The position numbers and the translations under genes are program-made. A stretch of DNA of 40,804 nucleotides from a virus: the UHGV virus genome UHGV-0164601; one strand, written 5' to 3'. The notes under the pieces were generated by a model. The model saw only the letters and a program-made list of their open reading frames with translations. It had not been told where the DNA came from and did not search any database. Positions 6,200 to 34,335 of the stretch are shown here, piece after piece (position 1 is the first letter of the stretch; each line of letters begins with the position of its first letter).

Positions 6200-6279
6200 T
6201 AAAAAACCAAATGTGGTTGATCTTTTTTTTGTGTCAGCACAAAATGACCGTAATCCCAATACTAATAACAGGGCTTACC

Positions 6280-6480
6280 ATGGAAATCATTACACGTATT
6301 GATGCCGCAAAGCGCGGACTTAAACGCTACTACACCGGAAAACCATGTAAGCACGGACATGACAGTGAACGCTGGGTTTACAACGGACACTGTGTTGAGT
6401 GCACCATGGAATCAAACCGTCGCATCAGGGCTGAGATTAAGCAGATCATGATTAATTCCTCCCCACAACATTCAAGCTGA
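6280..6480 (+). CDS. Hypothetical small Cys/His-rich protein (possible zinc-binding regulator)
   Basis: 66-aa frame MEIITRIDAAKRGLKRYYTGKPCKHGHDSERWVYNGHCVEC; start chosen at ATG 6280; the alternative ATG at 6211 lacks a Shine-Dalgarno. Confidence 0.35.
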   Translation: MEIITRIDAAKRGLKRYYTGKPCKHGHDSERWVYNGHCVECTMESNRRIRAEIKQIMINSSPQHSS

Positions 6481-6495
6481 TAGCGGAGATTAATC

Positions 6496-7311
6496 ATGAG
6501 CAGACATGCAACAGATTGGGCCTGGGAGACAGATCCAGGTAGCTCGTCATTAAAGCTCATACTGCTCTCGATGGCTGACAGAGCCGATGAATATAACCTC
6601 TGCTACCCCAGCATAGAACGCCTCGTTAAAGACACTTGCCTGAATAAAAAAACCGTGCAGGCCGGGCTTATATCGCTCATGAAAATGGGGCTTATTTCAG
6701 ATACCGGAGAGAGAAAGGGGGCGACGAAAAGAGTACGGGTTTTCTCTCTTAATATAACCAAAAACGGGAACATTAAAGGCAACCGGGAAGGGGGTAATGA
6801 ACCCGAAAACGGTAATGTTACCGGAAACGGGAATATACCCAAAAACGGGATGTTGAATGATCCCAAAAACGGGATGTTGAATGATCCCAAAAACGGGATC
6901 CAGAACCAGTCATATAACCAGTCATTTAACCAAGAGAGGGAGAGCAGGACAAAAAGCGGGGATTCTGTGCCTCATGACCCCGGCGCAAACAACGCCGTGA
7001 TGAATAACTTTGTTCCTCCTGGTGGGCCAGGGCAATTAGGCAAATTTGTCATGCATGAACAATGGCAGCCATCAGATGACTTTCTTCGGAAAAGCTCATT
7101 GCAGGGGATCTACCTGGACAGTCTGCCAACGGCACAGGAACTTGCAGAGTTCAGAATTTACTGGATGGCTGAGGGTAAGGCATACCATCAGGCACAGTGG
7201 GAGCAGAAGCTGGCAAGGCGGCTGCAGATTAGCAGACAGAAGCAATCAACATTACCTGATAACAACGTTCCGCACTGGAACAGCCCTGAAGCATGGGAGG
7301 ATTTCTTGTGA
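6496..7311 (+). CDS. Replication initiator, lambda O-like (winged-helix N-terminus, iteron-encoded low-complexity middle)
   Basis: N-terminal DWAWETD...LKLILLSMADRADEY...ERLVKDTCLNKKTVQAGLISLMKMGLIS; central NG-rich repeats encoded by the iteron array; followed by a P-like gene. Confidence 0.75.
   Translation: MSRHATDWAWETDPGSSSLKLILLSMADRADEYNLCYPSIERLVKDTCLNKKTVQAGLISLMKMGLISDTGERKGATKRVRVFSLNITKNGNIKGNREGGNEPENGNVTGNGNIPKNGMLNDPKNGMLNDPKNGIQNQSYNQSFNQERESRTKSGDSVPHDPGANNAVMNNFVPPGGPGQLGKFVMHEQWQPSDDFLRKSSLQGIYLDSLPTAQELAEFRIYWMAEGKAYHQAQWEQKLARRLQISRQKQSTLPDNNVPHWNSPEAWEDFL
6758..6900. repeat. Iteron array (candidate origin of replication) inside the O-like gene
   Basis: AAAACGGGA-type repeats at about 6758, 6801, 6821; two perfect 24-bp direct repeats CCCAAAAACGGGATGTTGAATGAT at 6838-6861 and 6862-6885; partial third copy 6886-6900. 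Confidence 0.6.
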
Positions 7312-8093
7312 ACAACGTTTTTACCGCGATACAAAACCGTGACGGAGAAGCCCTTTCTCGCATGTCAGGTTATGAGCATCAGTACGTCAACAATGACAAT
7401 GTGGTGAACATGTCAGCAGAGAGGCTTGTTGATGCTCTTTTCAAACAGCTGAAACAGCTGTTTCCGGCGGCAGTGGTAACCAACCTGAAGACGCCAGAGC
7501 AGGAAGTTGCTGCAAAACAGCAGTGGATTGCTGCGTTTGCCGAAGGTGGGATCCGAACCCGTGAACAGGTTTCTGCTGGTATGCGCCACGCCCGCGCCAG
7601 TGAATCTCCGTTCTGGCCGTCGCCAGGGCAATTTATCAAGTGGTGCAAAGACAGCAAGATGGTTCTTGGCGTCACCATTGACGATGTGATGGCGGAGTTT
7701 CACCGGTACAGCAAGGAAAAAAGTTTATATCCTGGTGGTCCCGAAAGATTCCCGTGGCGACATCCGGTTATGTACTGGGTCGTATGTGATACCCGCCGTG
7801 CAATGTATCAGCGCCAGCTTAGCGAGATTGAGGTTGAGAAACACGCGCGCAGGCTGCTCGATGATTGGGCGAAAAAGGTGGCTTCCGGACAGCAGATACC
7901 CGATCCGGTGATCAGCATACAGGCAAAGCCAGAACCCATGAGTACGCCTCCGGACACAGGGAGAGACGTTTACCATCCACCAGGGCGAAGTTTCGGGTGT
8001 ATGCCTAACGCCGCCACCCTGGGGGGAATAACACCGGCGCAGTGGCTGATGGAGGAATACAGGCGGGGAAAGGCGGCAGGATTTATCAAGTAA
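7308..8093 (+). CDS. Replication protein P-like (helicase loader)
   Basis: Segment QQWIAAFAEGGIRTREQVSAGMRHARASESPFWPSPGQFIKWC matches the conserved core of lambda P; start set at GTG 7308 (GGGAGG 7 nt upstream, GTGA overlap with O stop); ATG 7293 is the alternative. Confidence 0.75.
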   Translation: MNNVFTAIQNRDGEALSRMSGYEHQYVNNDNVVNMSAERLVDALFKQLKQLFPAAVVTNLKTPEQEVAAKQQWIAAFAEGGIRTREQVSAGMRHARASESPFWPSPGQFIKWCKDSKMVLGVTIDDVMAEFHRYSKEKSLYPGGPERFPWRHPVMYWVVCDTRRAMYQRQLSEIEVEKHARRLLDDWAKKVASGQQIPDPVISIQAKPEPMSTPPDTGRDVYHPPGRSFGCMPNAATLGGITPAQWLMEEYRRGKAAGFIK

Positions 8094-8098
8094 TACCA

Positions 8099-8118
8099 GC
8101 GCGATAGCGCATTTTTTT
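8099..8118 (+). terminator. Weak terminator-like hairpin plus T7 run after the P-like gene
   Basis: Short GCGC/GCGC stem followed by TTTTTTT. Confidence 0.3.
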
Positions 8119-8130
8119 ACGCCCACATGA

Positions 8131-8145
8131 TTACCTGATGGGTAA
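8131..8145. promoter_or_regulatory. Operator-like palindrome TTACC-TGATG-GGTAA
   Basis: Perfect copy; 34 bp upstream of the ATGTGGTT motif at 8180-8187. Confidence 0.5.
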
Positions 8146-8192
8146 TAAAATATTCTAGTATCTATTAATTTCATGTCTTATGTGGTTTTTAA

Positions 8193-8207
8193 TTACCTAA
8201 GGGGTAA
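8193..8207. promoter_or_regulatory. Operator-like palindrome TTACC-TAAGG-GGTAA overlapping the ribosome-binding site of the next gene
   Basis: Perfect copy ending 3 nt before ATG 8211; the AAGGGG centre doubles as the Shine-Dalgarno. Confidence 0.5.
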
Positions 8208-8210
8208 ATC

Positions 8211-8555
8211 ATGAGAAAACAGATACAGGCTCTTGGTCGGCTCAAAACAGGCCAGATGAACAAAACAGAATCTGCGTATTGCCAGCACCTTGAGCTGCGT
8301 AAACGTGCAGGGGAAATCGCATGGTATCGATTCGAGGGTATCAAGCTGCGGTTAGCTGACAACACGTTCTATACGCCAGATTTCGCTGTGATGCTCGCCA
8401 CCGGAGAGATGGAACTGCACGAAGTGAAAGGTTTCTGGACCGACGACGCCAGGGTGAAAACCAAAGTCGCCGCAGATCAGTATCCGTTCCGAATCATCGG
8501 GGTAACGGTTAAACCAAAGAAAGCAGGTGGTGGCTGGAACATCGAAGAGTTCTGA
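8211..8555 (+). CDS. DUF1064-like phage protein (putative nuclease-fold protein of replication/nin regions)
   Basis: 114 aa; pattern AYCQHLELRKRAGEIAWYRFEGIKLRL...YTPDFAVML...ELHEVKG resembles DUF1064 family members. Confidence 0.5.
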   Translation: MRKQIQALGRLKTGQMNKTESAYCQHLELRKRAGEIAWYRFEGIKLRLADNTFYTPDFAVMLATGEMELHEVKGFWTDDARVKTKVAADQYPFRIIGVTVKPKKAGGGWNIEEF

Positions 8556-8616
8556 ATCGACGATCTTTTTAGTTATCAATGTAATCAATAAGTTATGTGG
8601 ATAAGCGAGGGTAAAG

Positions 8617-9162
8617 ATGGAAAGTATGGCTGAAGGTATGATCAAAGATTTAGTGGCATCAGGGCATGCGTTAGCTGACGACATGACAGGCGCACCATCC
8701 GTGCTTGTTCGCTGTTTGGCAGCGCAACTGGAAGTTCAGTTGGTGCGTGCTAATGAGCTGGCCGAAGACCACCAGAGAGCGATTGAGTCAATTAAGCAGG
8801 CTGATGCAGCTGTTAAGTTGGCACACGAGAAGTTTTCGACGCTGGCAGCGGAGAATGCGGGGCTAAAGGCGATATGTGATGACCGTCGCAGATTCATCAT
8901 GAATGGGGTGCAGATGGGTTATATCAAGGTGCCAGCAGCGGAAACAGATCCAGACCTTGAGACAATTCGCATTGCTATATCACCACAAAAGCCCATTCCA
9001 GCCACCGATGCTTTCCTGACTGAAATTGAACGCAAAGCAATCCGAAAGTTCATTAACAGCATTGAACACATCCTGCGTGACAAGTTGTCACCGTATGACA
9101 CCGAAGAGATGCTTGAGACTATGCGCATTTTTCTGGAAGAACAGGGAGGCGAGCAAAAATGA
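8617..9162 (+). CDS. Hypothetical phage early protein (181 aa, coiled-coil-rich)
   Basis: GAGGG Shine-Dalgarno before ATG 8617; no recognisable domain. Confidence 0.5.
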   Translation: MESMAEGMIKDLVASGHALADDMTGAPSVLVRCLAAQLEVQLVRANELAEDHQRAIESIKQADAAVKLAHEKFSTLAAENAGLKAICDDRRRFIMNGVQMGYIKVPAAETDPDLETIRIAISPQKPIPATDAFLTEIERKAIRKFINSIEHILRDKLSPYDTEEMLETMRIFLEEQGGEQK

Positions 9163-9473
9163 CAATCACAAAACAACGAGTAGAAAAAATCATATATCGC
9201 CATGAAATGGGACTGAACAGCGATGTCACTGCCGAAGAGGTTTATGACCTGGCTGTACTGGCGCTGAATTTATCAAATATCGCAAACCTCAAGCGATACG
9301 AGCTTGATATGGGTGGTTGTGACTCGTGCGGTCAGGATTGTGGCGCTGACATGACAGAAGATTCTGATGGCGATTATGTCCTGTTTGATGACGTGGTTAA
9401 GTTGTTTGAGTTTGATACAACCACTCAGAAGATAGAAAGCCCAGCAAAGGAGGCAACCAGTGAGCAAGATTGA
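9159..9473 (+). CDS. Hypothetical phage early protein (104 aa)
   Basis: GGAGG before ATG 9159; ATGA overlap with upstream stop. Confidence 0.5.
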   Translation: MTITKQRVEKIIYRHEMGLNSDVTAEEVYDLAVLALNLSNIANLKRYELDMGGCDSCGQDCGADMTEDSDGDYVLFDDVVKLFEFDTTTQKIESPAKEATSEQD

Positions 9474-9903
9474 TTATCAAAAGCTTCGTGAAATCGCTGA
9501 AAAAACAAAAATTGCTGGTGAAGCACCTGTAATGCCTTTCGATCAGCGAATTAATGCGCTTAACGATTTTATGAAGCACTTTTCGCCAGATATCGCGCTG
9601 GTATTGTTGGATGAACGGGAAAGAAACCAGCAATACATCAAATCCCGCGACCAGGAGAACGAGGAAATTGCGCTAACGGTAGGGAAGCTGCGCGTTGAGC
9701 TTGAAGCAGAAAAACAGCGGGCAAAAGTTCTATTTATGGAAAATGCTCGGCTTAAGTCAGGCATAGCCGGTCTGATACACCTCGGTATTCGATATGCAGA
9801 TGTTGAGGTCATGAAAATTGCTGGAGATGCCCAGCTTTCTACCCCATGCACTGACAGCATCATAAACAGCATTGCAACAGGCATTCGCATCAAAGGAGAG
9901 TGA
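9460..9903 (+). CDS. Hypothetical phage early protein (147 aa, Ea22-like coiled coil)
   Basis: GTG 9460 preceded by AAGGAGG; overlaps the upstream gene by 14 nt. Confidence 0.5.
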   Translation: MSKIDYQKLREIAEKTKIAGEAPVMPFDQRINALNDFMKHFSPDIALVLLDERERNQQYIKSRDQENEEIALTVGKLRVELEAEKQRAKVLFMENARLKSGIAGLIHLGIRYADVEVMKIAGDAQLSTPCTDSIINSIATGIRIKGE

Positions 9904-9904
9904 T

Positions 9905-10192
9905 ATGGCAACTTTGCAGGAATTAATCGACCTGACGCCAGAACAGGAAAAAGCGTGGAATCGCCTTGTGAAGGCTGTAAAGGATTTCAGGGCAGCCGGA
10001 GGAAAGTTTTATAGCGTCCTGGACACGCTGAGCGCATACAACGGCGAGCACGTTGCCAGCATTGATAACGATAAGGGCTACCACACTGCAAGCGTCTATA
10101 TGCCTAGCATTGATGCGCCAGGGCTAACCAGTTGGGCTGATGATTGGCACGGCATCACGCTGAAAGATGGCGTTGAAGTGGATGAGGACTAA
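9905..10192 (+). CDS. Hypothetical protein (95 aa)
   Basis: Start placed at ATG 9905 (MATLQEL), 2 nt after the upstream stop, GGAGAG upstream. Confidence 0.45.
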   Translation: MATLQELIDLTPEQEKAWNRLVKAVKDFRAAGGKFYSVLDTLSAYNGEHVASIDNDKGYHTASVYMPSIDAPGLTSWADDWHGITLKDGVEVDED

Positions 10193-10195
10193 CAC

Positions 10196-11023: not shown

Positions 11024-11297
11024 CCTGCAACTTGCCGTCAAAGGTGAATACTTCGATGCCATGATTCGCGGAGAGAAAACGGAAGAGTATCGCCTGTGTA
11101 ATGACTACTGGAATAAGCGAATTATGTTCCGGGAGTATGACCGCCTGATTATCACAAAGGGATATCCGAAGCGCGACGATTCCAGCCGCAGAATTGATAT
11201 TCCGTATGACGGATATGAAATCAAGACAATCACACATCCGCACTTCGGTGATAAACCGGTAAAGGTGTTCGCGATAAAGGTAAATATTGATGGCTAA
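11016..11297 (+). CDS. ASCH-domain protein
   Basis: GTG 11016 preceded by AGGAGG; LAVKGEYFDAMIRGEKTEEYR is a typical ASCH beta-barrel opening. Confidence 0.5.
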   Translation: MANLQLAVKGEYFDAMIRGEKTEEYRLCNDYWNKRIMFREYDRLIITKGYPKRDDSSRRIDIPYDGYEIKTITHPHFGDKPVKVFAIKVNIDG

Positions 11298-11628
11298 ATC
11301 AGCAGCAGAGCGCAAAGCCGCTCAGAGAGCCAGACAAGCTGCATCTGGTGTGCGTAAGCTGGAGATTGTGCTTGATGCTCAGGAAATTGAAATGCTGGAG
11401 CGTAACTGTGCCACGCGTCGCCCCGGGCGTGCGCCTTACGAATTTGGTGAGTATATAGCGTTACTGATCCGCCAGGATGATGCACGCGTGCGCGGGCGTA
11501 TAAAATCGATCAGCAGAAAACGTTGCGGTAAGTGCGGCGAGAGAGTTCCAGTTAATTCATGCCCGTGTAATGGTGACTCGCAATGCTGGGTGACTAAAGG
11601 CTGGCATGAAACGAAATTAATAGTGTGA
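11290..11628 (+). CDS. Hypothetical basic protein with C-terminal Cys cluster (possible regulator)
   Basis: 112 aa; Lys/Arg-rich N-terminus and CGKCGERVPVNSCPCNGDSQC; last gene before the terminator preceding the terminase operon. Confidence 0.45.
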   Translation: MAKSAAERKAAQRARQAASGVRKLEIVLDAQEIEMLERNCATRRPGRAPYEFGEYIALLIRQDDARVRGRIKSISRKRCGKCGERVPVNSCPCNGDSQCWVTKGWHETKLIV

Positions 11629-11677
11629 CATGTCACGAGTAGATTATGCATGATGAATTTGATGGATTTTGAATACT

Positions 11678-11703
11678 GCCGCCAACTATGGCGGCTTTAT
11701 TTT
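11678..11703 (+). terminator. Rho-independent terminator between the nin-like operon and the terminase operon
   Basis: GCCGCC-AACTAT-GGCGGC hairpin followed by TTTATTTT. Confidence 0.6.
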
Positions 11704-11714
11704 GCATGGTACTA

Positions 11715-11729
11715 TTACCACAACGGTAA
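11715..11729. promoter_or_regulatory. Operator-like palindrome TTACC-ACAAC-GGTAA upstream of the small terminase gene
   Basis: Perfect copy; a variant TTACC-ACGGT-GGTTA follows at 11733-11747 overlapping the terS ribosome-binding site. Confidence 0.5.
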
Positions 11730-11746
11730 CAATTACCACGGTGGTT

Positions 11747-12343
11747 ATGATGCCTGCTGAACCTAAAACCTATAAACGCAAATCAACGCAATTTAAGCCG
11801 CTCACAGCAATGCAGGAGGCTTATTGCCAGTCATACATCAAAACGCCTGAAAACCAGACTCAGGCTGCGATTAACGCAGGATTCTCCCCAAATACAGCGG
11901 CAGTTAAAGCCAGTGTCATGATGCGCGATGAACGCATTCAGAAACGGATTGCCGAGTTGATGGAGGAGCGCAACAAACGAATGCGTGTCAGTGCTGATTA
12001 CGTTCTCATGCGCCTGGTGGAGATCGACCAGATGGACGTGATCGACATCCTCAACGACGATGGGAGCCTTAAACCAATCCGTGAGTGGCCGAAAATCTGG
12101 CGCACTACGCTTAGTGGCTTTGATCTGTCATCGACCATCATGAACATGAACGAGGATTCAATAGAGACAATCCTCAAAAAAATTAAATGGCCTGACAAGG
12201 TGAAGAACCTTGAGCTGATTGGTAAGCATGTTGATGTCAACGCATTCAAAGAACGTCTGGATGTTAATGTGAATGTGACAATTGCTGATCGCATAGCAGC
12301 AGCCAGGAAGCGACTCAAAGAACGTCAGGATGGTAATCAGTGA
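11747..12343 (+). CDS. Terminase small subunit (Terminase_2-like)
   Basis: YCQSYIKTP...TQAAINAGFSPNTAAVKASVMMRDERIQKRIAEL matches the small-terminase HTH pattern; start at ATG 11747 (GGTGG upstream); upstream TTG-initiated extension rejected. Confidence 0.7.
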   Translation: MMPAEPKTYKRKSTQFKPLTAMQEAYCQSYIKTPENQTQAAINAGFSPNTAAVKASVMMRDERIQKRIAELMEERNKRMRVSADYVLMRLVEIDQMDVIDILNDDGSLKPIREWPKIWRTTLSGFDLSSTIMNMNEDSIETILKKIKWPDKVKNLELIGKHVDVNAFKERLDVNVNVTIADRIAAARKRLKERQDGNQ

Positions 12344-13815: not shown

Positions 13816-13855
13816 TCCGCTGGTGGGGATAATGTCGTTGATATCCTCTGATGAG

Positions 13856-13885
13856 GATAAAACAAAGCCAGCTCATCGGCTGGCT
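13856..13885 (-). terminator. Terminator for the minus-strand moron (hairpin also faces the terminase operon)
   Basis: AGCCAGC-TCATCG-GCTGGCT hairpin with a TTGTTTTAT run on the minus strand. Confidence 0.45.
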
Positions 13886-13905
13886 GTTTGTGACATGTCA
13901 CGGTG

Positions 13906-14325: not shown

Positions 14326-14336
14326 AATCTCACCTT

Positions 14337-14523: not shown

Positions 14524-14600
14524 TGGCGTGGCATGCAGGATTCGAACCTGCGACCAACCGCTTAGAAGGCGGTTGCTCTGTCCAACTGAGCTAATGCCAC
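14524..14600 (-). tRNA. tRNA-Arg, anticodon UCU (decodes AGA), phage-internal
   Basis: 77-nt cloverleaf read from the reverse complement: acceptor GTGGCAT/ATGCCAC, D-arm GCTC/GAGC, anticodon stem ACCGC/GCGGT with loop CTTCTAA, T-arm GCAGG-TTCGAAT-CCTGC, discriminator G, encoded CCA. Confidence 0.85.
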
Positions 14601-14922
14601 AACGCTGAGAGCACTTAGCCTGTTAAGGCACCACACTTTGTCGCGGCTCCATAAATGCTCTCATCGTTGTACCCTCGTCTCTTCCGAGGCGTCACACCGA
14701 ATCGCCGGGATGGTGAATCCCCGTGCGCGGAATAAAACCGCTCGACTTGCACATTCCGGCTACCTGGTTCGTTTGCCCGAGCAAGGGAGGGTGCCCCTTA
14801 AACGTATCCAGACCGCTATCGTCGCATGTGCCATACGCCGTACTGCTCAAAATAAAAGCTCACTCCACCTGTTCAATTTAACGACAAGCCAGTCAGGTTA
14901 GTAACCGGAATGAACTCTTTAG

Positions 14923-14937
14923 TTACCTGAAAGGTAA
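14923..14937. promoter_or_regulatory. Operator-like palindrome TTACC-TGAAA-GGTAA upstream of the portal operon
   Basis: Perfect copy; 44 bp upstream of ATGTGGTT (14982-14989). Confidence 0.5.
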
Positions 14938-15027
14938 TAATTCGCGCGTTAAATGTCAACTATCTACGATAAATAAATCATATGTGGTTAAATTGGTAAT
15001 AATTTAATTGCGTACGGAGTCATTGAT

Positions 15028-24241: not shown

Positions 24242-26988
24242 TGCCTGTTGTTCCTACTACATCCGGACGCCAGGTGCAAAGTCGTGGTGTGCAAACCGGT
24301 GGTTTTCAGACCTTCGATGTTCCTCAAGCAGGTCAGGTGCTGGCGAATGTCGCAGATCAGTATGCGGTGGCATATGGTGAAGCTAGGCAGAAAGCGAATG
24401 TTGCTATGGCCCAGGAGGCGTTACTGCAATTTAACCAATTTGCAGATGACCAGATTAACAACCCTGAAAATGGGCTGATTTCTAAACAGGGTAAAAACGC
24501 TCTTGGTCAGAGTGACGCTGTTATGAAAAATATGCAGGAAAGGGCTCAGGCATTATTAGGCTCAATTCCTGAAAGTGAGGAAAGGAATAAATTATCCTTT
24601 CAACTCCAGCAGTCTATGCAGTCTTATTACAATCAGGCACGTCGATATGAAGTTGGGCAGTTTCAGCAATTCCAAGATCAAACGTATTTGTCAGGAAATG
24701 CATTGGCTGTCACTCAGTCTGCGGGGCTATATAGCGATAACCAAGCATTTGTCGATTTAGCCAAGCAGCGATTTGAATCTATTGATCAATACGCTGATGC
24801 GCATGGGCTTCCTGATGAGTGGCGTGTTCAGCAGAAAACTCAGCTCAAGGAACAAATGGGGCAGCAAGCATGGATAGGAAATATCGCTCAAAAATACAAC
24901 GAGTTTCTTCAGGTTAATGGAGAGCCAGGGGATCTTGATGGTGTGAGTCGTGCAATATCACATGGTAATTCATTGGATGCTCGTGGTTTACGTAATAATA
25001 ACCCTGGCAATATTGAAGCGAGCAAATCTAACCCGTGGGAAGGTCAGATCGGTAGCGATGGACGTTTTGCAACGTTTGCTACCCCTGAGCATGGAATCCG
25101 CGCGTTGGGTAAAAATATGTTGTCTTACCAGCGTCAAGGCTATGACACCGTTAGCGAGATTGTTAATCGCTATGCTCCGGCTAGTGATGGTAATAATACT
25201 GATGCTTATATTAGGGCATTGTGTAGTGAGCTTGGTGTTGGGGAGAATGATCAGCTTGATATCTCTAACCCAAAGACACTAGCTGCTTTATGTGCTGGGA
25301 TTATTAAACACGAAAATGGCAGTATGCCTTATAGCACCGAACAGCTTGAAACTGGTATCTCGGCAGCCCTTGGTCTAACTAACCTTGATTCACCTAAGCG
25401 TTATACGGGCAATGCGGCATTTGACGCTATGAGCCCTCAAATGCAAATACAGGCATTGAGGCAGGCTAATGAGCTGAGAAATCAGTACCGCCAGCAGTAT
25501 GCGGACCAGCTTAGCACCGTAGTTAAAGATGCATATTCAGCCCTTGATGAAGGATTGAAACCTGAGAAGTTACCTTCTGAGGACGATTTTATCCGGGCCA
25601 ATGGTCCGCGCATTGGCGCTATGAAGTGGAAGGATATGCAGGCGCAGATACAATATGGAGGTGTCATTGGTGCCGCTAAAGACCTCACTCCAGAAGGACG
25701 ACAAGACATTCTTGAACGTTTACGTCCACAGGATCCAAACGCTCTTGGATTTGCAGCTAACCAGCAACGCTGGGAGAAAATGCAGGCCAAATTTAAAGAG
25801 ATGGATAGGGAGTGGGAGATTCAGCAGGGAAGAAACAGGTTCGTGTCTTCAATGCAAAATAACTTCCCGCTGGACCCTAACGACAAAAACAATCAGGCAG
25901 CGGTAGACCGTTATTTCGCGCAGGATATCGCGCCTTCGTTTTCCATATCTGATCCGCAGAGCATCAATACACTGGTCACCGTCACAACTAAAAGCGGCAT
26001 GATACCAACTCAGGTTAAAACAATGCTTAACAGTGGAGCAACATCAAGAGATCCTGCGCTGGTTGTCCCGATGGCAAAATTCTACGGTCAGTTATTCGAT
26101 AATAATCCGGCGGCAGCGGCAACACTTGATAAAAGTACGATGGCATTTTACGGCAAGGTTTACGATTATTCCCGCGCTGGCGTGCCGGAGGATAAGGCTG
26201 TTGATATGGCTTACAGCCAGGTGTTCCAACAGGATGACCGAATGAAACAGATGCTTTCCACTGCCATGCGAGACAAAAAATATGTCGCGGCGAGGGCAAC
26301 TGCTGCACAAAATAACGCCAGCAGTCTGACTTCCTTTGGTTCGTGGTCTCCGGATATTACCGATCCAGGAAAATCAAATGCGGCCTATCAGCGAGATTAC
26401 CAGACAATTTACGATGCTAACTTTGTACAGACAGGTGGCGATGCAGAACAGGCTGAGAAAATGACCAATGCCATGATCAGAACCACCTGGGGAGTTTCTA
26501 CAGTTAATGGCAAAGCAGAGGTTATGAAGTATGCACCTGAGGCATTGTACGGAGTAAATAATGGTGCTGGTAACTGGATACAGGGGCAGTGGGAGCAGGA
26601 AAAACGCGAGCTTAAATCAAAATCCTTTGGCGGTCCTCGCAGTGATACGGACTTAATACTTGTTTCTGATGGCCTTACGGCAAGGGATAGGAGTTATGCT
26701 GTTATGGTTTTACAGCCTGACGCAAACGGAGCGATAGAACCGAGAAATTATATTGGAGAAAATGGTCTCCCTGTTCGTTTCAAGCCGGATCAGCTGACAT
26801 CTCCAATGTACAGGCAAACCATTCAGTTCCAGCAACAGCGTGTTGATGAGGCTAGAGTGCGGAGAGAAGGCAATCCGCTGCCGCAGTTCAGCAATAAAGA
26901 TGGATATACTCCTCCAGATCTGACCAAACCATTCGGTTATGGTTCAGCCAATTACCTTCCGAGCAATATATACGCAGGGGGCAAATAA
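24241..26988 (+). CDS. Internal virion (core/ejection) protein B-like, 915 aa
   Basis: Second large core gene, translationally coupled; contains a conserved-looking central module NNPGNIEASKSNPWEGQIGSDGRFATFATPEHGIRALGKNML of unknown function. Confidence 0.5.
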   Translation: MPVVPTTSGRQVQSRGVQTGGFQTFDVPQAGQVLANVADQYAVAYGEARQKANVAMAQEALLQFNQFADDQINNPENGLISKQGKNALGQSDAVMKNMQERAQALLGSIPESEERNKLSFQLQQSMQSYYNQARRYEVGQFQQFQDQTYLSGNALAVTQSAGLYSDNQAFVDLAKQRFESIDQYADAHGLPDEWRVQQKTQLKEQMGQQAWIGNIAQKYNEFLQVNGEPGDLDGVSRAISHGNSLDARGLRNNNPGNIEASKSNPWEGQIGSDGRFATFATPEHGIRALGKNMLSYQRQGYDTVSEIVNRYAPASDGNNTDAYIRALCSELGVGENDQLDISNPKTLAALCAGIIKHENGSMPYSTEQLETGISAALGLTNLDSPKRYTGNAAFDAMSPQMQIQALRQANELRNQYRQQYADQLSTVVKDAYSALDEGLKPEKLPSEDDFIRANGPRIGAMKWKDMQAQIQYGGVIGAAKDLTPEGRQDILERLRPQDPNALGFAANQQRWEKMQAKFKEMDREWEIQQGRNRFVSSMQNNFPLDPNDKNNQAAVDRYFAQDIAPSFSISDPQSINTLVTVTTKSGMIPTQVKTMLNSGATSRDPALVVPMAKFYGQLFDNNPAAAATLDKSTMAFYGKVYDYSRAGVPEDKAVDMAYSQVFQQDDRMKQMLSTAMRDKKYVAARATAAQNNASSLTSFGSWSPDITDPGKSNAAYQRDYQTIYDANFVQTGGDAEQAEKMTNAMIRTTWGVSTVNGKAEVMKYAPEALYGVNNGAGNWIQGQWEQEKRELKSKSFGGPRSDTDLILVSDGLTARDRSYAVMVLQPDANGAIEPRNYIGENGLPVRFKPDQLTSPMYRQTIQFQQQRVDEARVRREGNPLPQFSNKDGYTPPDLTKPFGYGSANYLPSNIYAGGK

Positions 26989-29900: not shown

Positions 29901-30377
29901 GCACAGCATAACAGGGTGCTGGTATCTGGTATCCAGCAGGGCGATGCTGCATTCTATCTTGGTGCGCTTGGCACGATTGCGCTTGGCTCAATGGTCTATA
30001 TGATGAAACAGAAGTTAAGCGGTCGCGATATCGACTACAGCTGGAATAACCTTGTGAAAGAGGGGATCGACCGGGGCGGAATGCTTGGCTGGCTCTCTGA
30101 GCCGCTGAATACCGTTGAGAACATAAGCGGCGGTAGGTTTGGTCTTGGCGCGATGTTTGGTGCGCCTCCGGTATCAAGGTTTCAGAGTCGTAATGCTATT
30201 GGTGCTTTACTTGGTCCTACCTTTGATCTTGGCGGTGATGCCGCGACGGTTGCAAATGGTGTACTTAACGGAGAATTTGACAGCCAGCAAACCCACGCTG
30301 TCCGTAAAATGCTACCTTTTCAGAATCTGTGGGCGATATCACCATTACTAAATAAAGTTGAAGAGCAGATGAAATAG
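26988..30377 (+). CDS. Internal virion (core/ejection) protein D-like, 1129 aa
   Basis: Largest ORF of the structural module, immediately after the 915-aa core gene, as T7 gp16 follows gp15. Confidence 0.5.
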   Translation: MPIYEQDPKELLGEDIQQIAAPDDSNFYMETPSLLSAVNPFTSDQRVQRSRQAAFRIDNTLGSFIASAPFSQFDRVEGYNPFDNDAADIKGYEDFADSFINSGSHEETMAIKHRIDKQRTDREYLSEMGGAGTISSLAMGMIDPVNVAAMFIPVGAVARGGSIAETAGRFALANAAGGGVSEAALQATQEARSPMESVSNVVVDALVGGILGAGAQLLAGPSAREAVVNSVGNHLRGMDSPQSIGAAQVFNTTLDQEQLAGLGLANKTLSVTPAGRLAQSPSLVSRQINQQLAENNYFFAKNDEGLATFTAVETKIKQYDAMLYKQMEATRDAYQQYSKSVSARGVKRMNFIDFNEAVGMAMRRGDQSDIPEVSQAAARIRPIFETTKARMQELGILPEDIDVVTAKSYLPRIYKFDKILSDRTEFRGRIANWIQGISAKGADKAGQRIEKINSLLKTAEESAPRADALASEIAEAEKWSGKKILLMEELDKRNKLISQETDTQARLTRIEKELAETSSEKLQARMMKESSDLKTRLDDIAQAKSELPVYQRHMELLDNPRKYRSELRRLQKRANSTTRLNASRERALKQMEPLSREEAEDAADEIVNKIIGAPSGLVPADIIPERLVGRAGFTKSRTLLIPDERIEDFLESDVNYIMESYLRQVAPEIELTAQFGRKDMGEQIRQVSEEYTRLIKEAKTPKRRAVLEKQREADIRDITAMRDRLLGTYGAPQDPRSFFVRAGRVARNINFLRLLGGMTVSAATDLMRPMMQHGLRKSLGPMVSMLKNMDSVKIATRDLREMAVGLDYVLSTRTKAIADLTDPYSRRSAAERGLNWMTQKFGNWTLMNQWNSALKSWSGMIVQSRILDAARQVSAGGTLSKSEMRKMAQVGINEDVLRRIGEQFGKHGEDMDGLLTGHSHLWDDRFAREIFQSAVLKDVDSVIVTPGVGDTPLFFSKEGWKMITQFKTFIFAQHNRVLVSGIQQGDAAFYLGALGTIALGSMVYMMKQKLSGRDIDYSWNNLVKEGIDRGGMLGWLSEPLNTVENISGGRFGLGAMFGAPPVSRFQSRNAIGALLGPTFDLGGDAATVANGVLNGEFDSQQTHAVRKMLPFQNLWAISPLLNKVEEQMK

Positions 30378-30378
30378 G

Positions 30379-31230
30379 ATGAAAAAAATAAATTTGTTTT
30401 TTGGCATAGTGCTTTCAATAGTCTCTGTAAATCCTACAGCTGCCAGTTCATTGCAATGCAATAAGGATAACTTTGATGCATGCAAAACGTGCGAACAATT
30501 ATCAAAGGCTATCGACTTAAAAGAACCTAATCGTGGCGATTACTATAGAGGGGCTTTATGGAATGGGCTTTACGCCTCTTATGTAATTAATTGCCCTGTG
30601 GTTGCAGAGAAGTTACTGAGCCATGGTGCTATACCATCATATGGCGGATATATGGGGTCTATGGGGGCGGTTCTGACAGGAAAATGGCCTCATAACAATG
30701 AATCAATAAATCTTTCATGGGCAGATTTGCTTATAAAACATGGATTTGATGTTAATAGGCATACGGGGAATTATAAATCAGCTACTGAAGTATGGGCTAT
30801 AGATAAAAAACAGATTGAATATAAGTCAGTTTTTGACAAGTTAATTCAATCCAGCGAAGTAAAACCACTCGATCCTTCAAGAAATTTAGAATGGTGTGCG
30901 TCTGAAGGGTATCGCTCAGTTGTCGTTTATTCCCTTAACTCATGTATAGAAAATGCTATAAAACGTTTGGATGACGGTGTTTCTTCAGCGTCTGATATTT
31001 CATCAGCAGCCGTAAATTCCTGTACTAGCGATGTAGAAAATTTCAATAAGCATTTGGCATGCAAAGCAGCTGTTAAAGAAAACTCTGATAAAGAGAGAAG
31101 CAACGTTTACCAGTTATTAACCAGTGATAGTCAAATGAATAAAAATGTTATTGATATGCTGAAGGAAAGAAATATTGAAACGGTTCTTGAATTTAGAGCT
31201 GAAAATCGATCAGCGAAAACTGCACAGTGA
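30379..31230 (+). CDS. Secreted protein of unknown function (moron), possible ankyrin-like repeats
   Basis: Signal-peptide-like N-terminus MKKINLFFGIVLSIVSVNPTAASS; visibly AT-rich codon usage; LL.HGA / LLIKHGFDVNRHT ankyrin-like segments; own terminator. Confidence 0.55.
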   Translation: MKKINLFFGIVLSIVSVNPTAASSLQCNKDNFDACKTCEQLSKAIDLKEPNRGDYYRGALWNGLYASYVINCPVVAEKLLSHGAIPSYGGYMGSMGAVLTGKWPHNNESINLSWADLLIKHGFDVNRHTGNYKSATEVWAIDKKQIEYKSVFDKLIQSSEVKPLDPSRNLEWCASEGYRSVVVYSLNSCIENAIKRLDDGVSSASDISSAAVNSCTSDVENFNKHLACKAAVKENSDKERSNVYQLLTSDSQMNKNVIDMLKERNIETVLEFRAENRSAKTAQ

Positions 31231-31236
31231 TCAAAC

Positions 31237-31261
31237 AGGCCGCTTTCGCGGCCTTGTTTTT
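31237..31261 (+). terminator. Rho-independent terminator after the secreted-protein gene
   Basis: AGGCCGC-TTTC-GCGGCCT hairpin followed by TGTTTTT. Confidence 0.6.
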
Positions 31262-31300
31262 AACGAATGCCACCGCCGCCTGGGTGGGAATCCGCAGACA

Positions 31301-31323
31301 CAAAAAAGCCCGCGCCGCGGGCT
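31301..31323 (-). terminator. Rho-independent terminator of the minus-strand two-gene cassette
   Basis: GCCCGC-GCC-GCGGGC hairpin containing the stop codon, followed on the minus strand by TTTTTTGT. Confidence 0.5.
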
Positions 31324-31762
31324 ATTCTTCTTCATCATAAAAAAGCGGATTGTCGTTTCCATCTGATGAAAGGAAAGGTATGTGTTCTCTTGAAAATCCA
31401 ACAACGACAATTTCATTATCATTTTTTGCATAATGAATGCATTCATTAGAATGCATTCCGCCAGGGTTGAAATTTAAGTTAATGGTATAATTCTTAAATG
31501 TGTTTGGATACCATGTTGGCCCACAATGATAATGCCAATAATTCTCTTGCTCATAATTGTCTGAGCCGGGAATTTTATCATGGTTATCATCAACCCACGA
31601 TGGCTTGTTTTTTCCAACAAGCGCCCTTCCATTGGCAACATCTTCTAAAAACCTTTGTATGATTTTTATTTCATCGTCAGTAAGGAAAGGTCCGTCTACA
31701 GCGAAAGGGGTGTTGCTTTCCCCATTTAGAAAACTATTAGATATTCTAATGTTAAACTTCAA
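31322..31762 (-). CDS. Hypothetical protein (146 aa), distal gene of a two-gene moron cassette
   Basis: TTG start at 31762 with AGGAG 6 nt upstream; AT-rich; conserved-looking YWHYHCGP segment; acidic C-terminus FYDEEE; no family recognised. Confidence 0.5.
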   Translation of the reverse strand: MKFNIRISNSFLNGESNTPFAVDGPFLTDDEIKIIQRFLEDVANGRALVGKNKPSWVDDNHDKIPGSDNYEQENYWHYHCGPTWYPNTFKNYTINLNFNPGGMHSNECIHYAKNDNEIVVVGFSREHIPFLSSDGNDNPLFYDEEE

Positions 31763-31782
31763 GACAAACTCCTAATGTGCTT

Positions 31783-31950
31783 CTATTTGGAGCGAAATGC
31801 CGCCTTGAAGTCGCTGAAAGATGTTCCTGTCTGGTAAACCATATCCTTGTCGCGCTCTTTGCTTGCGCGGCCAAGCATAACTTTTCCAATGACATCCCAG
31901 CATTGCTTGGCTTGTTCATTGTGCTGAGTACGATTTTTCAACGCTGTCAT
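31783..31950 (-). CDS. Hypothetical small protein (55 aa), proximal gene of the two-gene cassette
   Basis: Not in the ORF track (<60 aa); ATG 31950 preceded by AGGAGG (31957-31962); MTALKNRTQHNEQAKQCWDVIGKVMLGRASKERDKDMVYQTGTSFSDFKAAFRSK. Confidence 0.45.
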   Translation of the reverse strand: MTALKNRTQHNEQAKQCWDVIGKVMLGRASKERDKDMVYQTGTSFSDFKAAFRSK

Positions 31951-31962
31951 ATCGCGCCTCCT

Positions 31963-31977
31963 TTACCTTTAAGGTAA
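31963..31977. promoter_or_regulatory. Operator-like palindrome TTACC-TTTAA-GGTAA between the predicted -10 and the ribosome-binding site of the cassette
   Basis: Perfect copy immediately upstream of the AGGAGG Shine-Dalgarno. Confidence 0.5.
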
Positions 31978-32005
31978 TAGTACGCTATTCACCCACAGTC
32001 TGCAA
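31977..32005 (-). promoter_or_regulatory. Candidate sigma70 promoter of the two-gene cassette
   Basis: Minus strand -35 TTGCAG (32005..32000), 17-bp spacer, -10 TACTAT (31982..31977). Confidence 0.4.
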
Positions 32006-32050
32006 TCTGTACAGAATTATTTAAAGGCACATCCCTGTGCCGCCGTTCTG

Positions 32051-32737
32051 TCAGAAGAACCCTGCCTTGTCGTTGATGTACTCCGCGTGCGTCTGGATAT
32101 CACGCAGGCATTTGCTCACACCGACGATGTAGCAGAACATGGTGGTCAGTTCCGCCGCCGCGCCCGATACATCATGCCCGTCGTCCTGCAACTGATTCAG
32201 CAGATTCATCAGCAATGAGTTCTCCGTCAGGCCGAGAACACCCGACGGCGAATGAATCAGACTGCGGTAGCCTGGCTTCAGTGGGGCACTGTAGGTTTTG
32301 TTCTCTATCTTCATCGCCTGCATTACTGCTGACGCCGTGGCGTTGGCTACCTGGTCGGCAACCATCTTTATGCGCTCTTCCTGCGGGAGCGAGTTTTTAA
32401 TGTAGCTTCCGGTGCGGCGGATCTGAGGAAGAACCTCACCTGTAACCCATTTGCGAAAGCGGTAGGGGATAGTGCCTGGTGTCACTGCGTCGCGGCAGCG
32501 GAGGATCAGTGTGTAGAGGCCTGACTCGTTGATAATATTGGTTTCGCCTTGACGGCCTAAGTTAAATTTAGCCCTTTCATCATCATCAAGAGATTTTATT
32601 GACATAGTGGGGTTTGTCAGTTGAAGAGCTTTAATAACGTCTTTGGCAACAAACCAAGGATTTCCATCAATAACAATGGCTCGAATGGTTGCTTCTGATT
32701 CAAAATGAAAAACAGATGGGGTTACGTTAGCAGTCAT
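32051..32737 (-). CDS. Phage antirepressor (BRO-N domain with KilA-C/Ant-type C-terminal domain)
   Basis: N-terminal FHFESEATIRAIVIDGNPWFVAKDVIKALQL...ESGLYTLILRCRDA is a typical BRO-N motif; start at ATG 32737 (AAGGTG upstream) rather than the ORF-track start 32890, which would run through the leader hairpin. Confidence 0.75.
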   Translation of the reverse strand: MTANVTPSVFHFESEATIRAIVIDGNPWFVAKDVIKALQLTNPTMSIKSLDDDERAKFNLGRQGETNIINESGLYTLILRCRDAVTPGTIPYRFRKWVTGEVLPQIRRTGSYIKNSLPQEERIKMVADQVANATASAVMQAMKIENKTYSAPLKPGYRSLIHSPSGVLGLTENSLLMNLLNQLQDDGHDVSGAAAELTTMFCYIVGVSKCLRDIQTHAEYINDKAGFF

Positions 32738-32890
32738 AGTGATCACCTTTGTAGTTAGGTTAATCACCACTACCGACGCCAATCGGTTGGTGGTGAACTG
32801 TGCAGGGTTGGCGTAACCGGCTACAAAGGACCCGGCGCACCTTTCGGTGCCCCCACACAGCCCACCATAGAATAGGTGCGCTTTACACAT

Positions 32891-32909
32891 AAAAAAACCG
32901 CTTATGCGG
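32891..32909 (-). terminator. Weak terminator/attenuator-like hairpin in the antirepressor leader
   Basis: CCGC-TTAT-GCGG hairpin followed on the minus strand by TTTTTTT. Confidence 0.3.
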
Positions 32910-32924
32910 CATATGTGCCTCTGT

Positions 32925-32976
32925 AGTAATCCGGGACGCCAATCCCGGCACTGGATTTTGCCAGTGCCCGATTACT
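32925..32976. other. Structured element (nested inverted repeats) upstream of the antirepressor; candidate leader RNA or small RNA
   Basis: AGTAATCCGGG...CCCGATTACT outer stem enclosing hairpins CCGGGA-CGCCAA-TCCCGG and CACTGG-ATTTTG-CCAGTG. Confidence 0.3.
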
Positions 32977-33003
32977 ATGGCACAAGAGGAGTGCAATGTA
33001 AAT

Positions 33004-33018
33004 TTACCGTAAAGGTAA
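33004..33018. promoter_or_regulatory. Operator-like palindrome TTACC-GTAAA-GGTAA
   Basis: Perfect copy in the divergent region between the antirepressor and the membrane zinc-ribbon gene. Confidence 0.5.
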
Positions 33019-33096
33019 TGATAAGCGCGAAGAAACATTAAAATCAACCGTATTTGGTTGATTGCGTTTAACGCTTGATCACCTGAAAGCAAGATA

Positions 33097-33111
33097 TTAC
33101 CTTTAAGGTAA
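33097..33111. promoter_or_regulatory. Operator-like palindrome TTACC-TTTAA-GGTAA
   Basis: Perfect copy 21 bp upstream of ATG 33132; identical sequence to the site at 31963-31977. Confidence 0.5.
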
Positions 33112-33131
33112 TGTTATTGTGAGGAAAAGCA

Positions 33132-33860
33132 ATGGAAGTTTTCTGGATAGTTGTTGGTGTGGTTGCGGTGATTATTTACGTTATCAACCAGAACAAGACT
33201 AAGATCTCTGATCGTACGGTCGTTAATCATAACAAAACGATAAAGACCGAAGATGGGGAGATAACGATTAATCGTACACAGGTGATAGAACACACCTCTA
33301 CTCAGTTTCAAAAAACTGGAGGTAATGCGCCTAATATTTCCGCACCTCCTGCTTATGATAGTGCGGTAATCCAGACATATTATAAACAGCAGGAGTTAGC
33401 AAAAGAGAGGCAACTGATTCAGCCAAAGCCGTTTACAGCTGAGATTCCACCTGGAGTGTCAACGCGTCCGGCATATCATGGAAGATTCCCTGGTGATGAC
33501 ATATCGTCTCAGTCATCTAAAAAAGCACCTCAGGCAATATCAGAGCCAGCAAGAATACCTTCTGTATCGCTGCCAAAAGAAGAATCAGCTAACAGAGTTT
33601 CAAGTGGTAGCAAGCAGTGCTTGCGATGCAGAATAAACCTTCCATATGAAAAATTCAGGAAATCGTCAAAAAATCCAGATGGATTGACTAAATGGTGTGC
33701 AAGGTGTCTCGATGGCCCAAAGAATACACGCCATATGAAGTGGTGCCCAATTTGTAATGTCCGCAGAAAACGAACCAGCTTTTACCCTAATAATCAAAAT
33801 GCGGACGGCTTAATGGCATGGTGCAAAACGTGCTGGGATGAGCACAAAGCGAAACGATAG
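33132..33860 (+). CDS. Membrane-anchored protein with duplicated CxxC-x22-WCxxC zinc-ribbon (rubredoxin-like) modules
   Basis: N-terminal hydrophobic helix FWIVVGVVAVIIYVI, Pro/Ser/Gln-rich linker, then CLRC...DGLTKWCARC and CPIC...DGLMAWCKTC repeats; GAGGA before ATG 33132. Confidence 0.6.
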   Translation: MEVFWIVVGVVAVIIYVINQNKTKISDRTVVNHNKTIKTEDGEITINRTQVIEHTSTQFQKTGGNAPNISAPPAYDSAVIQTYYKQQELAKERQLIQPKPFTAEIPPGVSTRPAYHGRFPGDDISSQSSKKAPQAISEPARIPSVSLPKEESANRVSSGSKQCLRCRINLPYEKFRKSSKNPDGLTKWCARCLDGPKNTRHMKWCPICNVRRKRTSFYPNNQNADGLMAWCKTCWDEHKAKR

Positions 33861-33884
33861 GCCGCTCTTGCGGCCTTTAAATTT
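33860..33884 (+). terminator. Rho-independent terminator after the zinc-ribbon gene
   Basis: GGCCGC-TCTT-GCGGCC hairpin followed by TTTAAATTT. Confidence 0.55.
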
Positions 33885-34140
33885 ACCGGGTTTGTTTTCG
33901 TAATTGTTCGGCACAATAGTCGAGATGTGTTTGCAGATCCCGCATAGACATCTGTGAGCTGGTGACGTAGTTAATCAGTGCAGTCAGTTCGGCAAGTGGG
34001 CCATCGACATTAAATCCATCCTTATCGAGATCCCGGAGTAATTTCATCAAGTGCGATCCCTCCACCAGTGACCTGACGCCTCCCGGCGTGTGAATCCTTT
34101 CGGTAAATCCGTCTTCCAGTGGATAGTGATACTGCTGCAT
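33883..34140 (-). CDS. Small antirepressor-like protein (85 aa), stand-alone paralog of the antirepressor C-terminal domain, with a LexA box in its promoter
   Basis: TPGGVRSLVEGSHLMKLLRDLDKDGFNVDGPLAELTALINYV...MRDLQTHLDY aligns with the C-terminus of the 32051-32737 protein (SPSGVLGLTENSLLMNLLNQLQDDGHDVSGAAAELTTMFCYI...LRDIQTHAEY); start at ATG 34140 with GGAG upstream. Confidence 0.55.
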   Translation of the reverse strand: MQQYHYPLEDGFTERIHTPGGVRSLVEGSHLMKLLRDLDKDGFNVDGPLAELTALINYVTSSQMSMRDLQTHLDYCAEQLRKQTR

Positions 34141-34159
34141 CTTATCTTCTCCATGCAAT

Positions 34160-34179
34160 AACTGTATATTTATACAGTA
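34160..34179. promoter_or_regulatory. LexA (SOS) box
   Basis: AACTGTATATTTATACAGTA: CTGT-N8-ACAG with an AT-only spacer, 18 of 20 matches to the E. coli consensus TACTGTATATATATACAGTA; 20 bp upstream of ATG 34140. Confidence 0.65.
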
Positions 34180-34216
34180 GCAAATAATTTGTTTGCTATC
34201 CAGCACGTTTTGCAAA

Positions 34217-34231
34217 TTACCCGAAAGGTAA
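34217..34231. promoter_or_regulatory. Operator-like palindrome TTACC-CGAAA-GGTAA
   Basis: Perfect copy between the SOS-box gene and the tailspike gene; 32 bp upstream of ATGTGGTT (34264-34271). Confidence 0.5.
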
Positions 34232-34335
34232 TATCTATTCATATTCACAGTATTTCTATCCATATGTGGTTTTTCAGGTAATAGAATAACCGGATATGCG
34301 GCGCAACGGGTGCTGCGACTATCTGGAGATTTAAC

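Follow-up and report, generated by a model that had tools for sequence, protein, structure and literature searches.

A conserved 14-bp dyad in fixed phase with Rep operators at promoters of a phiV10/epsilon15-like prophage

What kind of control element is repeated ahead of several operons of the virus genome UHGV-0164601, each time close to half-sites of an operator? In the 40,804 nucleotides (nt) of this genome that we analyzed as a whole (the window), the original prediction had noted an 8-mer, ATGTGGTT, which indeed occurs exactly at 6211, 8180, 14982 and 34264, always on the plus strand. The gene order is that of phiV10 and epsilon15 (int, early-left operon, rep, cro-like, replication, nin-like, terS/terL, portal to virion, ant, tailspike, lysis), and in the portal region identity is 98–99% with Escherichia phages HEMP4, phiV10, TL-2011b and relatives, compared with about 78% for Salmonella phages SPN1S and SPC32H. 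Because both gene order and portal region match, we assign the window to a phiV10/epsilon15-like (Uetakevirus) prophage beginning at int. The 8-mer turns out to be part of a larger dyad that is built into promoters at a constant distance from operators of the repressor Rep. Judged from its sequence and placement, this dyad is most likely a second, still uncharacterised predicted protein-binding site of the phage lysogeny switch.

The dyad and its conservation

Counted over the whole window the 8-mer is not enriched: four copies stand against 1.63 expected, and 11 of 100 shuffles reach four. However, all four copies lie in intergenic DNA (2877 bp, 7% of the window), where 0.097 are expected and 0 of 2000 region-wise dinucleotide shuffles reach that number.

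Alignment of the four regions with phiV10, SPN1S, epsilon15 and Tyrion, followed by a scan of 65FD and Klebsiella BUCT711, showed that the conserved unit is not the 8-mer but a 14-bp imperfect dyad with the consensus AACCATATNTGGTT, hereafter the box, of which ATGTGGTT is the right arm plus the variable centre. Position 9 (the G of ATGTGG) takes any base. Close relatives with identical Rep were drawn from IMG/VR; the locus search with a Rep alignment gave near-identical Rep loci only, and its counts are informative for position-9 variation only. At the replication-operon site 79 of them read AACCAAAT, then C (55), A (18), G (4) or T (2), then TGGTT, and in the copy at the early left promoter (PL) position 9 is T in 35, C in 30 and A in 13 of 78. 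Orthologous copies elsewhere have ATATGG, ATACGG or ATAAGG, so that the TG of ATGTGG is not kept.

The window holds seven copies (Table 1): the four listed originally, at the nin (A), portal (B), tailspike (C) and replication (D) operons, and three that had been missed, at PL, in the immI/ant region and at the lysis operon (E). Invariant in all seven are C4 and the TGGTT at positions 10–14, and GGTT is invariant in all genomes compared; the left arm is weaker (AACCA, ATCCA, AATCA, ATGCG, TGTCT). Strict matches (at least 12 of the 13 consensus bases) occur at 5 distinct sites in the whole window, against 0.048 expected; restricted to intergenic DNA, 7 relaxed matches compare with 0.26 expected and 5 strict ones with 0.004.

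The box is kept at the orthologous promoters of phiV10, SPN1S, epsilon15, Tyrion, 65FD and Klebsiella BUCT711, with identities of 85–94%. At the portal copy the stretch CATATGTGGTTAAATTGGTAATAATTTAATT is identical in 6 genomes with about 78% coding-DNA identity to the window, and differs at a few bases in BUCT711. In a distant Cronobacter prophage the PL spacer lacks the box and the nin copy is degenerate, while the replication copy is intact. Overall, conservation of the box is highest at the copies whose –10/+1 region is free of a canonical operator (D, E, B and C), and the box is weakest or absent at the covered Cronobacter PL and nin promoters. A scan of genome contigs with TGGTT-N5-TTACC-N5-GGTAA added one real relative, in Citrobacter braakii; almost all of the matches listed were chance ones.

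These data bear directly on the simplest explanation, that the 8-mer recurs by chance or encodes a short leader peptide. The whole-window count is compatible with chance, and three copies can be read as open reading frames of 5–6 codons that end in the TAA of the half-site (ATG TGG TTA AAT TGG TAA for MWLNW and a stop, ATG TGG TTT TTC AGG TAA for MWFFR and a stop). Set against this are the intergenic enrichment, the retention of the element at orthologous promoters, the loss of the ATG in relatives (ATATGG, ACGG, AAGG) and the absence of a Shine-Dalgarno sequence ahead of any copy. For practical purposes both versions are refuted. The ATG at 6211 was also considered as the start codon of the following gene and rejected, because in phiV10 the homologue is annotated with a start equivalent to window position 6280.

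Other parts of the original description changed on comparison. The stretches at 14979–15006 and 34261–34288, described as nearly identical, share 20 of 28 bases, which is less than that wording implies. The hexamer TATCTA is present 15 nt upstream of two copies, at 8159 and 14961 as described, but the portal one is not kept in relatives, and at nin and PL TATCTA is simply the flank of the –35 hexamer (TATCTA-TTAATT and TATCTA-TTGACA). The box is annotated in none of the phage records that we examined, and a text search on its sequence returned unrelated primers only. The Rep operator system is already known, and the box is apparently undescribed in the searchable literature, though an earlier description is possible.

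Placement in promoters and spacing to operators

The half-sites GGTAA and TTACC noted beside the 8-mer are those of the known Rep operator, TTACC-N5-GGTAA, which the flanking sequences match. Allowing at most one mismatch, the window has 14 such sites against 0.63 expected, and the RefSeq record of epsilon15 (NC_004775) annotates 'protein_bind repressor' at the equivalent positions before terS, gp3/portal and the tail fibre gene, and at PL and nin. The window Rep is homologous to the SPC32H Rep (PDB 5D50, E 4e-42), which binds DNA as a tetramer and is dismantled by the antirepressor Ant (PMC9638917). As predicted, half-sites follow three of the 8-mers after 5 nt (TTACC at 8193, GGTAA at 14995 and 34277), but the gap is not universal, being 4 nt at the SPN1S tailspike site. 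The box itself does not read as an operator, neither in the short form nor as the 17-mer ATTACC-N5-GGTAAT; in copy B the left half, AATCA, matches at one of five positions.

Where does the box lie relative to transcription? At PL (TTGACA at 5068–5063, 17 nt, AATTAT at 5045–5040, minus strand) and at the lysis promoter (GTAACA at 37637–37642, 17 nt, TATCAT at 37660–37665), both found by a consensus scan, it occupies positions 4–17 of the spacer. The same holds for nin, where the promoter was identified by reading (TTAATT at 8165–8170, 17 nt, TTTAAT at 8188–8193); its –35 is TTGATT in phiV10, and epsilon15 has TTGAAA-17-TTAAAT. Upstream of the replication operon, box D lies in the spacer of a possible weak promoter (GTAATA at 6196–6201, 17 nt, GATCTT at 6219–6224). 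In an alignment of eight lysis regions the box is followed immediately by an invariant TTTATnnTG, i.e., a TATnnT –10. At PL and nin the canonical operator begins at the final –10 base and covers roughly –8 to +8. The immI box overlaps the –35 of a leftward promoter, TTGATT-18-TATCAT, for isrK, C4 and ant.

The portal and tailspike operons must have promoters of their own, because terminators and oppositely oriented genes precede them. A simple sigma70 scan reports no promoter at either box. By reading, the portal GGTAAT half-site 5 nt past the box overlaps a likely extended –10 (TGG-TAATAA-T), and the tailspike half-site overlaps the –10 candidates TAATAG (34279–34284) and TAGAAT (34282–34287). 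At both operons the box thus stands where a –35 belongs, 4–5 nt ahead of the half-site, and this –10 is the only plausible one. Reading these two boxes as parts of leftward promoters was rejected, as the hexamers are poor and unconserved.

Two observations concern these sites individually. A perfect 7-bp inverted repeat surrounds the portal half-site at 14988–15007 (TTAAATT-GGTAAT-AATTTAA); it is conserved in 6 of 7 genomes, with a different right arm in BUCT711, and is absent at the tailspike copy. Directly after the replication-operon box, a GATC Dam site (6219–6222, TGGTTGATCTTTT) is found in every relative examined and overlaps the sole –10 candidate, GATCTT.

The placement narrows what the box can be. 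Specifically, the element had been tied to rightward operons and proposed as a phage-specific promoter, but PL is leftward, and at PL, nin and lysis the element sits in the 17-bp spacer of ordinary sigma70-type promoters. The association with promoters and the physical pairing with operator half-sites stand, and a role as activator site is possible at portal and tailspike, where the box takes the –35 place. Since it is found at early as well as late promoters, it fits poorly to a simple late-promoter consensus. At PL the box has the same spacer register as at nin and lysis and the opposite orientation relative to transcription, which argues for a symmetric protein site rather than a recognition element of RNA polymerase. 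Nor is it a sigma70 –35 or –10 hexamer, since register and orientation vary and a hexamer whose last two bases are the AT of ATGTGG carries a C at –11. A sigma54 promoter has GG and GC 12 nt apart (TGGCAC-N5-TTGC), whereas TGGTTAAATTGGTAA has two GG 9 nt apart and no GC. A terminator or RNA hairpin does not fit either: only the immI copy was flagged as terminator-like, the stems have 4–5 AT-rich pairs, and transcription from PL, nin and lysis starts downstream of the box.

The same comparisons weigh on the possibility that nothing dedicated binds the box, and that its copies are promoter sequence inherited through duplication of promoter-operator cassettes and retained for promoter strength through spacer or –35 composition. 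In favour of this, the 14 bases directly ahead of the –10 coincide with the box at four promoters, copies D and E have GGGTAA(T/C)AAAAAACCA...GGTT in common, and TATCTA flanks the –35 in both PL and nin. However, the PL box is inverted relative to transcription, the register differs at portal and tailspike, and the Cronobacter PL works with an unrelated spacer. Furthermore, dyad symmetry, a free position 9 within invariant flanks, and spacers kept in length and free in sequence are signatures of a protein site. We therefore regard common descent alone as unlikely.

The most informative quantity is the distance from box to operator. Measured from centre to centre, and to the nearest canonical operator unless stated otherwise, it is 19.5 bp at PL, replication and nin (proximal operator), 40.5 bp at tailspike, 41.5 bp at immI, 43.5 bp at lysis and 52.5 bp at portal; the distal operators of PL and nin are 42.5 bp away. 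Each value is identical in every genome where the site was identified (up to 7), and the values lie near 2, 4 and 5 helical turns. The DNA in between keeps its exact length while its sequence drifts. The 26-nt tailspike spacer is on average 46% identical over 7 genomes (minimum 23%), compared with 85% for the box; the 29-nt lysis spacer averages 49% over 5 genomes against 90% for the box, and the 38-nt portal spacer 73% over 7 genomes against 94%. At the level of sequence this constancy of length under drift is the strongest evidence that box and Rep operator may act together.

The operators themselves are also regularly arranged. At PL (5026/5088) and nin (8131/8193), canonical pairs have a start-to-start distance of exactly 62 bp, as also in locus L213 (5113/5175 and 8289/8351), and such pairs are present in all genomes examined, including the distant Cronobacter prophage. 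A very short loop made by Rep, or a wrapped complex, is suggested by this arrangement. Another reading of the box is a site for a host protein (integration host factor (IHF), Fis, another bending or global regulator, or DnaA) that helps Rep to form short loops. A bend would favour contact between operators at this 62-bp distance, and the epsilon15 record has predicted IHF sites beside several operators; but those annotations do not coincide with the box, which is moreover off-centre within the 62-bp interval. When we read four copies (B at the portal, D at replication, PL and immI), none fitted the IHF site WATCAANNNNTTR on either strand, the nearest fits needing a 6-nt gap or lacking TTR. The DnaA box has the consensus TTATCCACA, with the complement TGTGGATAA. 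Copy B reads TGTGGTTAA and matches that complement at 8 of 9 positions, but it is the only copy to do so, and its TGTGG is replaced in relatives by TATGG, TACGG or TAAGG. A host factor thus seems very unlikely.

What may bind the box

The element, its conservation, its place in promoters and its phase-locked spacing to operators are observations; that a protein binds it, that this protein is Rep or associated with Rep, and that the effect is repression is what we infer. Our preferred reading, which we hold tentatively, is that the box is an auxiliary element of the Rep repression complex, a place where the looping Rep tetramer or a partner would occupy core promoters. In most Rep-controlled promoters of the Uetakevirus group the box would then be built into the core as a protein site. 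A Rep tetramer would anchor on a canonical operator at a distance of roughly 2, 4 or 5 helical turns and contact the box through its second DNA-binding pair, another surface or a partner protein. Occupancy of the box would block the –35/spacer region, and the promoter would stay shut in the lysogen. The box would matter most where no canonical operator lies over –10/+1, i.e., at replication, lysis, portal and tailspike.

What is known of Rep is compatible with such a role. Its tetramerisation domain has a fold used in DNA looping, the same as in Rco of pLS20 (PMC9986798), and the window protein has two helix-turn-helix (HTH)-like regions (Pfam YdaS-like at residues 21–61, HTH_3 at residues 106–147). 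In the close relative ZX5, overexpression of Rep lowers holin and endolysin transcripts by more than 99.9% (PMC9782041), and the lysis promoter of most relatives has only a distal operator and the box. The drop in transcripts is consistent with box-assisted repression by Rep, but it could also be indirect.

Several points weigh against an auxiliary role in Rep repression. The constant distances could equally reflect the geometry between operator and promoter. The box has arms AACCA/TGGTT with 6 nt between the ACC and GGT cores, one base more than the TTACC/GGTAA operator of the window and of epsilon15/SPC32H, where the cores are 5 nt apart. A Pseudomonas phage repressor that shares only the N-terminal domain of Rep is flanked by TTACC-N4-GGTAA sites and no box; this ties the TTACC/GGTAA half-site to the Rep-type N-terminal domain and leaves the box outside what that domain is known to read. 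So distinct and well-kept a consensus suggests a site for another protein or domain more than a weak operator copy. Finally, the terS, PR and 31945 promoters are Rep-controlled and have no box. Comparison of immunity groups does not help here, because the three Rep types, 42–45% identical to each other, all have the same operator and box, which leaves no heteroimmune pair to compare.

A consensus of its own, distinct from the Rep operator, is what one would expect if the box were the site of a separate phage-encoded timing regulator, which would activate the –35-less portal and tailspike promoters (box centre near –27) and damp or modify the promoters with the box in their spacer. The moderate –10 hexamers of portal and tailspike fit this idea. 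Candidate regulators are the Cro-like p41, whose HTH is weakly similar to the YdaS-like N-terminal domain of Rep, the cysteine/histidine-rich p42, the PerC-like protein, and the gp49-like p55. The last has a cysteine-rich C-terminus and is encoded directly upstream of terS, much as P1 lpa precedes pacA, and a 9-bp inverted repeat for Lpa is present in every late promoter of P1 (PMC10695390). The window resembles P1 in having a short inverted repeat in core promoters and a small regulator gene just before the terminase genes, and portal and tailspike loosely fit the architecture of an Lpa-type late promoter, a –10 hexamer with a conserved inverted repeat in place of the –35. However, the box is also found at early promoters (PL, nin, replication, immI) and is missing from terS/terL, its sequence is unrelated to the P1 element as far as known, and strict phasing to Rep operators is not expected of an independent regulator. 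For p55 in particular, a tblastn search found no P1 match at E ≤ 1e-3, so that no Lpa homologue was detected, and its candidacy as binder is weakened by Pectobacterium phage ZF40, where a homologue with 67% identity to p55 is encoded and the intergenic regions are all free of the box. We also looked for a Cro-like gene without Rep; the 48 Cro clusters found were all at least 64% identical to the window's, and the most distant full-length cluster inspected (Cronobacter) has the same synteny, beside a Rep-type gene. An AlpA/Xis-like binder was rejected because the conserved box is not present at the phage attachment site attP. All in all, a separate timing regulator is possible, but less probable than an auxiliary site of the Rep complex.

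It is also conceivable, if rather doubtful, that two codes are read in combination. TTACC-N5-GGTAA would be read by the N-terminal domain of Rep, and the second dyad, AACCATATNTGGTT, by a different DNA-binding surface, so that a promoter would be locked in lysogeny or timed in lytic growth according to the helical phasing between the codes. Candidate readers of the second code would be the internal HTH_3 domain of tetrameric Rep, hitherto deemed structural, or a dedicated small regulator such as the cysteine/histidine-rich gp40/p42.

An auxiliary site for Rep would have relatives among known switches. The closest is the Rep/Ant/operator set of the epsilon15/SPC32H group itself, with the same promoters and a LexA-boxed ant present. 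Lambda CI (OR1–OR2, OL–OR) and Rco of pLS20 likewise combine helically phased primary and auxiliary sites with an oligomeric repressor. Unlike there, the auxiliary site here is not a weakened operator but has its own consensus, and the distances are short (19.5–52.5 bp). In P1, C1 operators are dispersed over the genome; in the window too, direct control of many separate transcription units by a single repressor is predicted, and a P1-type immI module is present (C4 RNA, isrK, Bro-N antirepressor). In lambda PR', the Q-binding element is a protein site between –35 and –10. The box resembles it at PL, nin, replication and lysis, where it lies in the spacer, and a small cysteine-rich protein is encoded upstream of the late genes; however, Pfam gave no Q homology, no pause element was identified, and the box is found at many promoters including PL.

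Surrounding features and implications

Table 1. Boxes, Rep operators and other features, in window coordinates. Empty cells: no entry.
Feature	Position	Strand	Remarks
Box PL, ATGCGTATATGGTT	5046–5059		early left promoter
Box D, AACCAAATGTGGTT	6205–6218		upstream of p42/replication operon; contains 8-mer at 6211
Box A, TGTCTTATGTGGTT	8174–8187		nin promoter spacer
Box B, AATCATATGTGGTT	14976–14989		upstream of gp3/portal, at –35 place
Box immI, AACCGTATTTGGTT	33046–33059		immI/ant region; extended dyad CAATCAACC-N6-GGTTGATTG
Box C, ATCCATATGTGGTT	34258–34271		upstream of tailspike gene
Box E, AACCATAAATGGTT	37646–37659		lysis-operon promoter spacer
Rep operator TTACCGTTGAGGTAA, PL	5026–5040		proximal
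Rep operator, PL	5088–5102		partner of proximal
Operator-like GCACCTTAAGGGTAA	6185–6199		5 nt ahead of box D
Rep operator, nin	8131–8145		upstream partner
Rep operator TTACCTAAGGGGTAA, nin	8193–8207		covers –10/+1 region and ribosome-binding site
Rep operator (14923–14937) with leftward promoter	14923–14959	minus	TTGACA (reverse complement of 14954–14959), 17 nt, TACCTT within operator
Isolated Rep half-site GGTAAT, portal	14995–15003	plus	by reading
Rep operators around immI box	33004–33018, 33097–33111
Rep operator, tailspike	34217–34231		upstream of box C
Isolated Rep half-site GGTAAT, tailspike	34277–34287	plus
GGTAA half-sites, lysis	37626–37630, 37636–37640
Adenine methyltransferase, phage-encoded	1446–2108
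PerC-like protein	2089–2388
rep (repressor gene)	5160–5744	minus	PDB 5D50 match
p41, Cro-like	5899–6129
p42 (gp40/p42)	6280–6480		small Cys/His-rich protein
Replication-initiator gene	6496–7311
p55, gp49-like	11287–11628		directly upstream of terS
tRNA-Arg(TCT) region	14524–14960	minus
Bro-N antirepressor open reading frame	32051–32890		C4 RNA and isrK directly upstream
C4 antisense RNA	32786–32872	minus	Rfam 79.5 bits
isrK	32891–32967	minus	Rfam 76.8 bits
ant	33883–34140	minus	85-amino-acid Ant homologue, PHROG 450
LexA box CTGT-N8-ACAG, CTGTATATTTATACAG	34162–34177		22 nt upstream of ant

Adjacent Rep operators at 11715 and 11733 (18 bp apart, 11715–11752) fall inside the terS reading frame as annotated in phiV10 (TTG 11669), while epsilon15 terS begins directly after its operators. 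In the window, translation of terS probably begins at the in-frame ATG at 11747 or 11750, which is closely preceded by an extended –10 (TGGTACTAT). The operator at 14923 more likely belongs to a leftward promoter, whose TTGACA is the reverse complement of a conserved TGTCAA block, directed toward tRNA-Arg and the p03 homologue; its 17-nt spacing is kept in 6 genomes with different spacer sequences. The roughly 320 nt between the tRNA and this conserved promoter (TTGACA-17-TACCTT) had no Rfam match, and for the corresponding stretch the epsilon15 record gives a predicted RNase III site. Outside the window, an operator-like TTACCTTAAAGGTAT flanked by GGTGACGGTA/TACCGTCA repeats lies in attP, about 45 nt upstream of int (phiV10 26870–26884, epsilon15 26882–26896), and integrase expression may also be under Rep control.

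The C4, isrK and Bro-N genes form a P1/P7-type immI module between the Rep operators at 33004 and 33097. With the SPC32H-type small Ant, one phage thus has two different antirepressor systems. The LexA box ahead of ant fits the LexA-controlled ant described for SPC32H; the program-made list of reading frames runs ant on to 34263, which is probably too long. Within the replication-initiator gene, at 6750–6902, 5–6 copies of a repeat of about 24 nt (GAATGATCCCAAAAACGGGATGTT), 18–45 nt apart, look like origin iterons inside the initiator gene, as in lambda O.

With their Rep-Ant switch, SPC32H/epsilon15-type phages provide a structural model of how a repressor binds in a 'noncanonical' way and how an antirepressor drives induction, and phiV10 and its relatives have uses in reporting and typing E. 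coli O157 and Salmonella. The structural, tailspike and lysis promoters of these phages are silenced without a full operator over their core, and a second, phase-locked box would explain how. The box would then be a concrete DNA target for asking how one Rep tetramer engages two sites. If instead a different protein binds it, the box would mark a timing regulator of this phage group. Either way, it shows which bases to mutate when engineering these phages.

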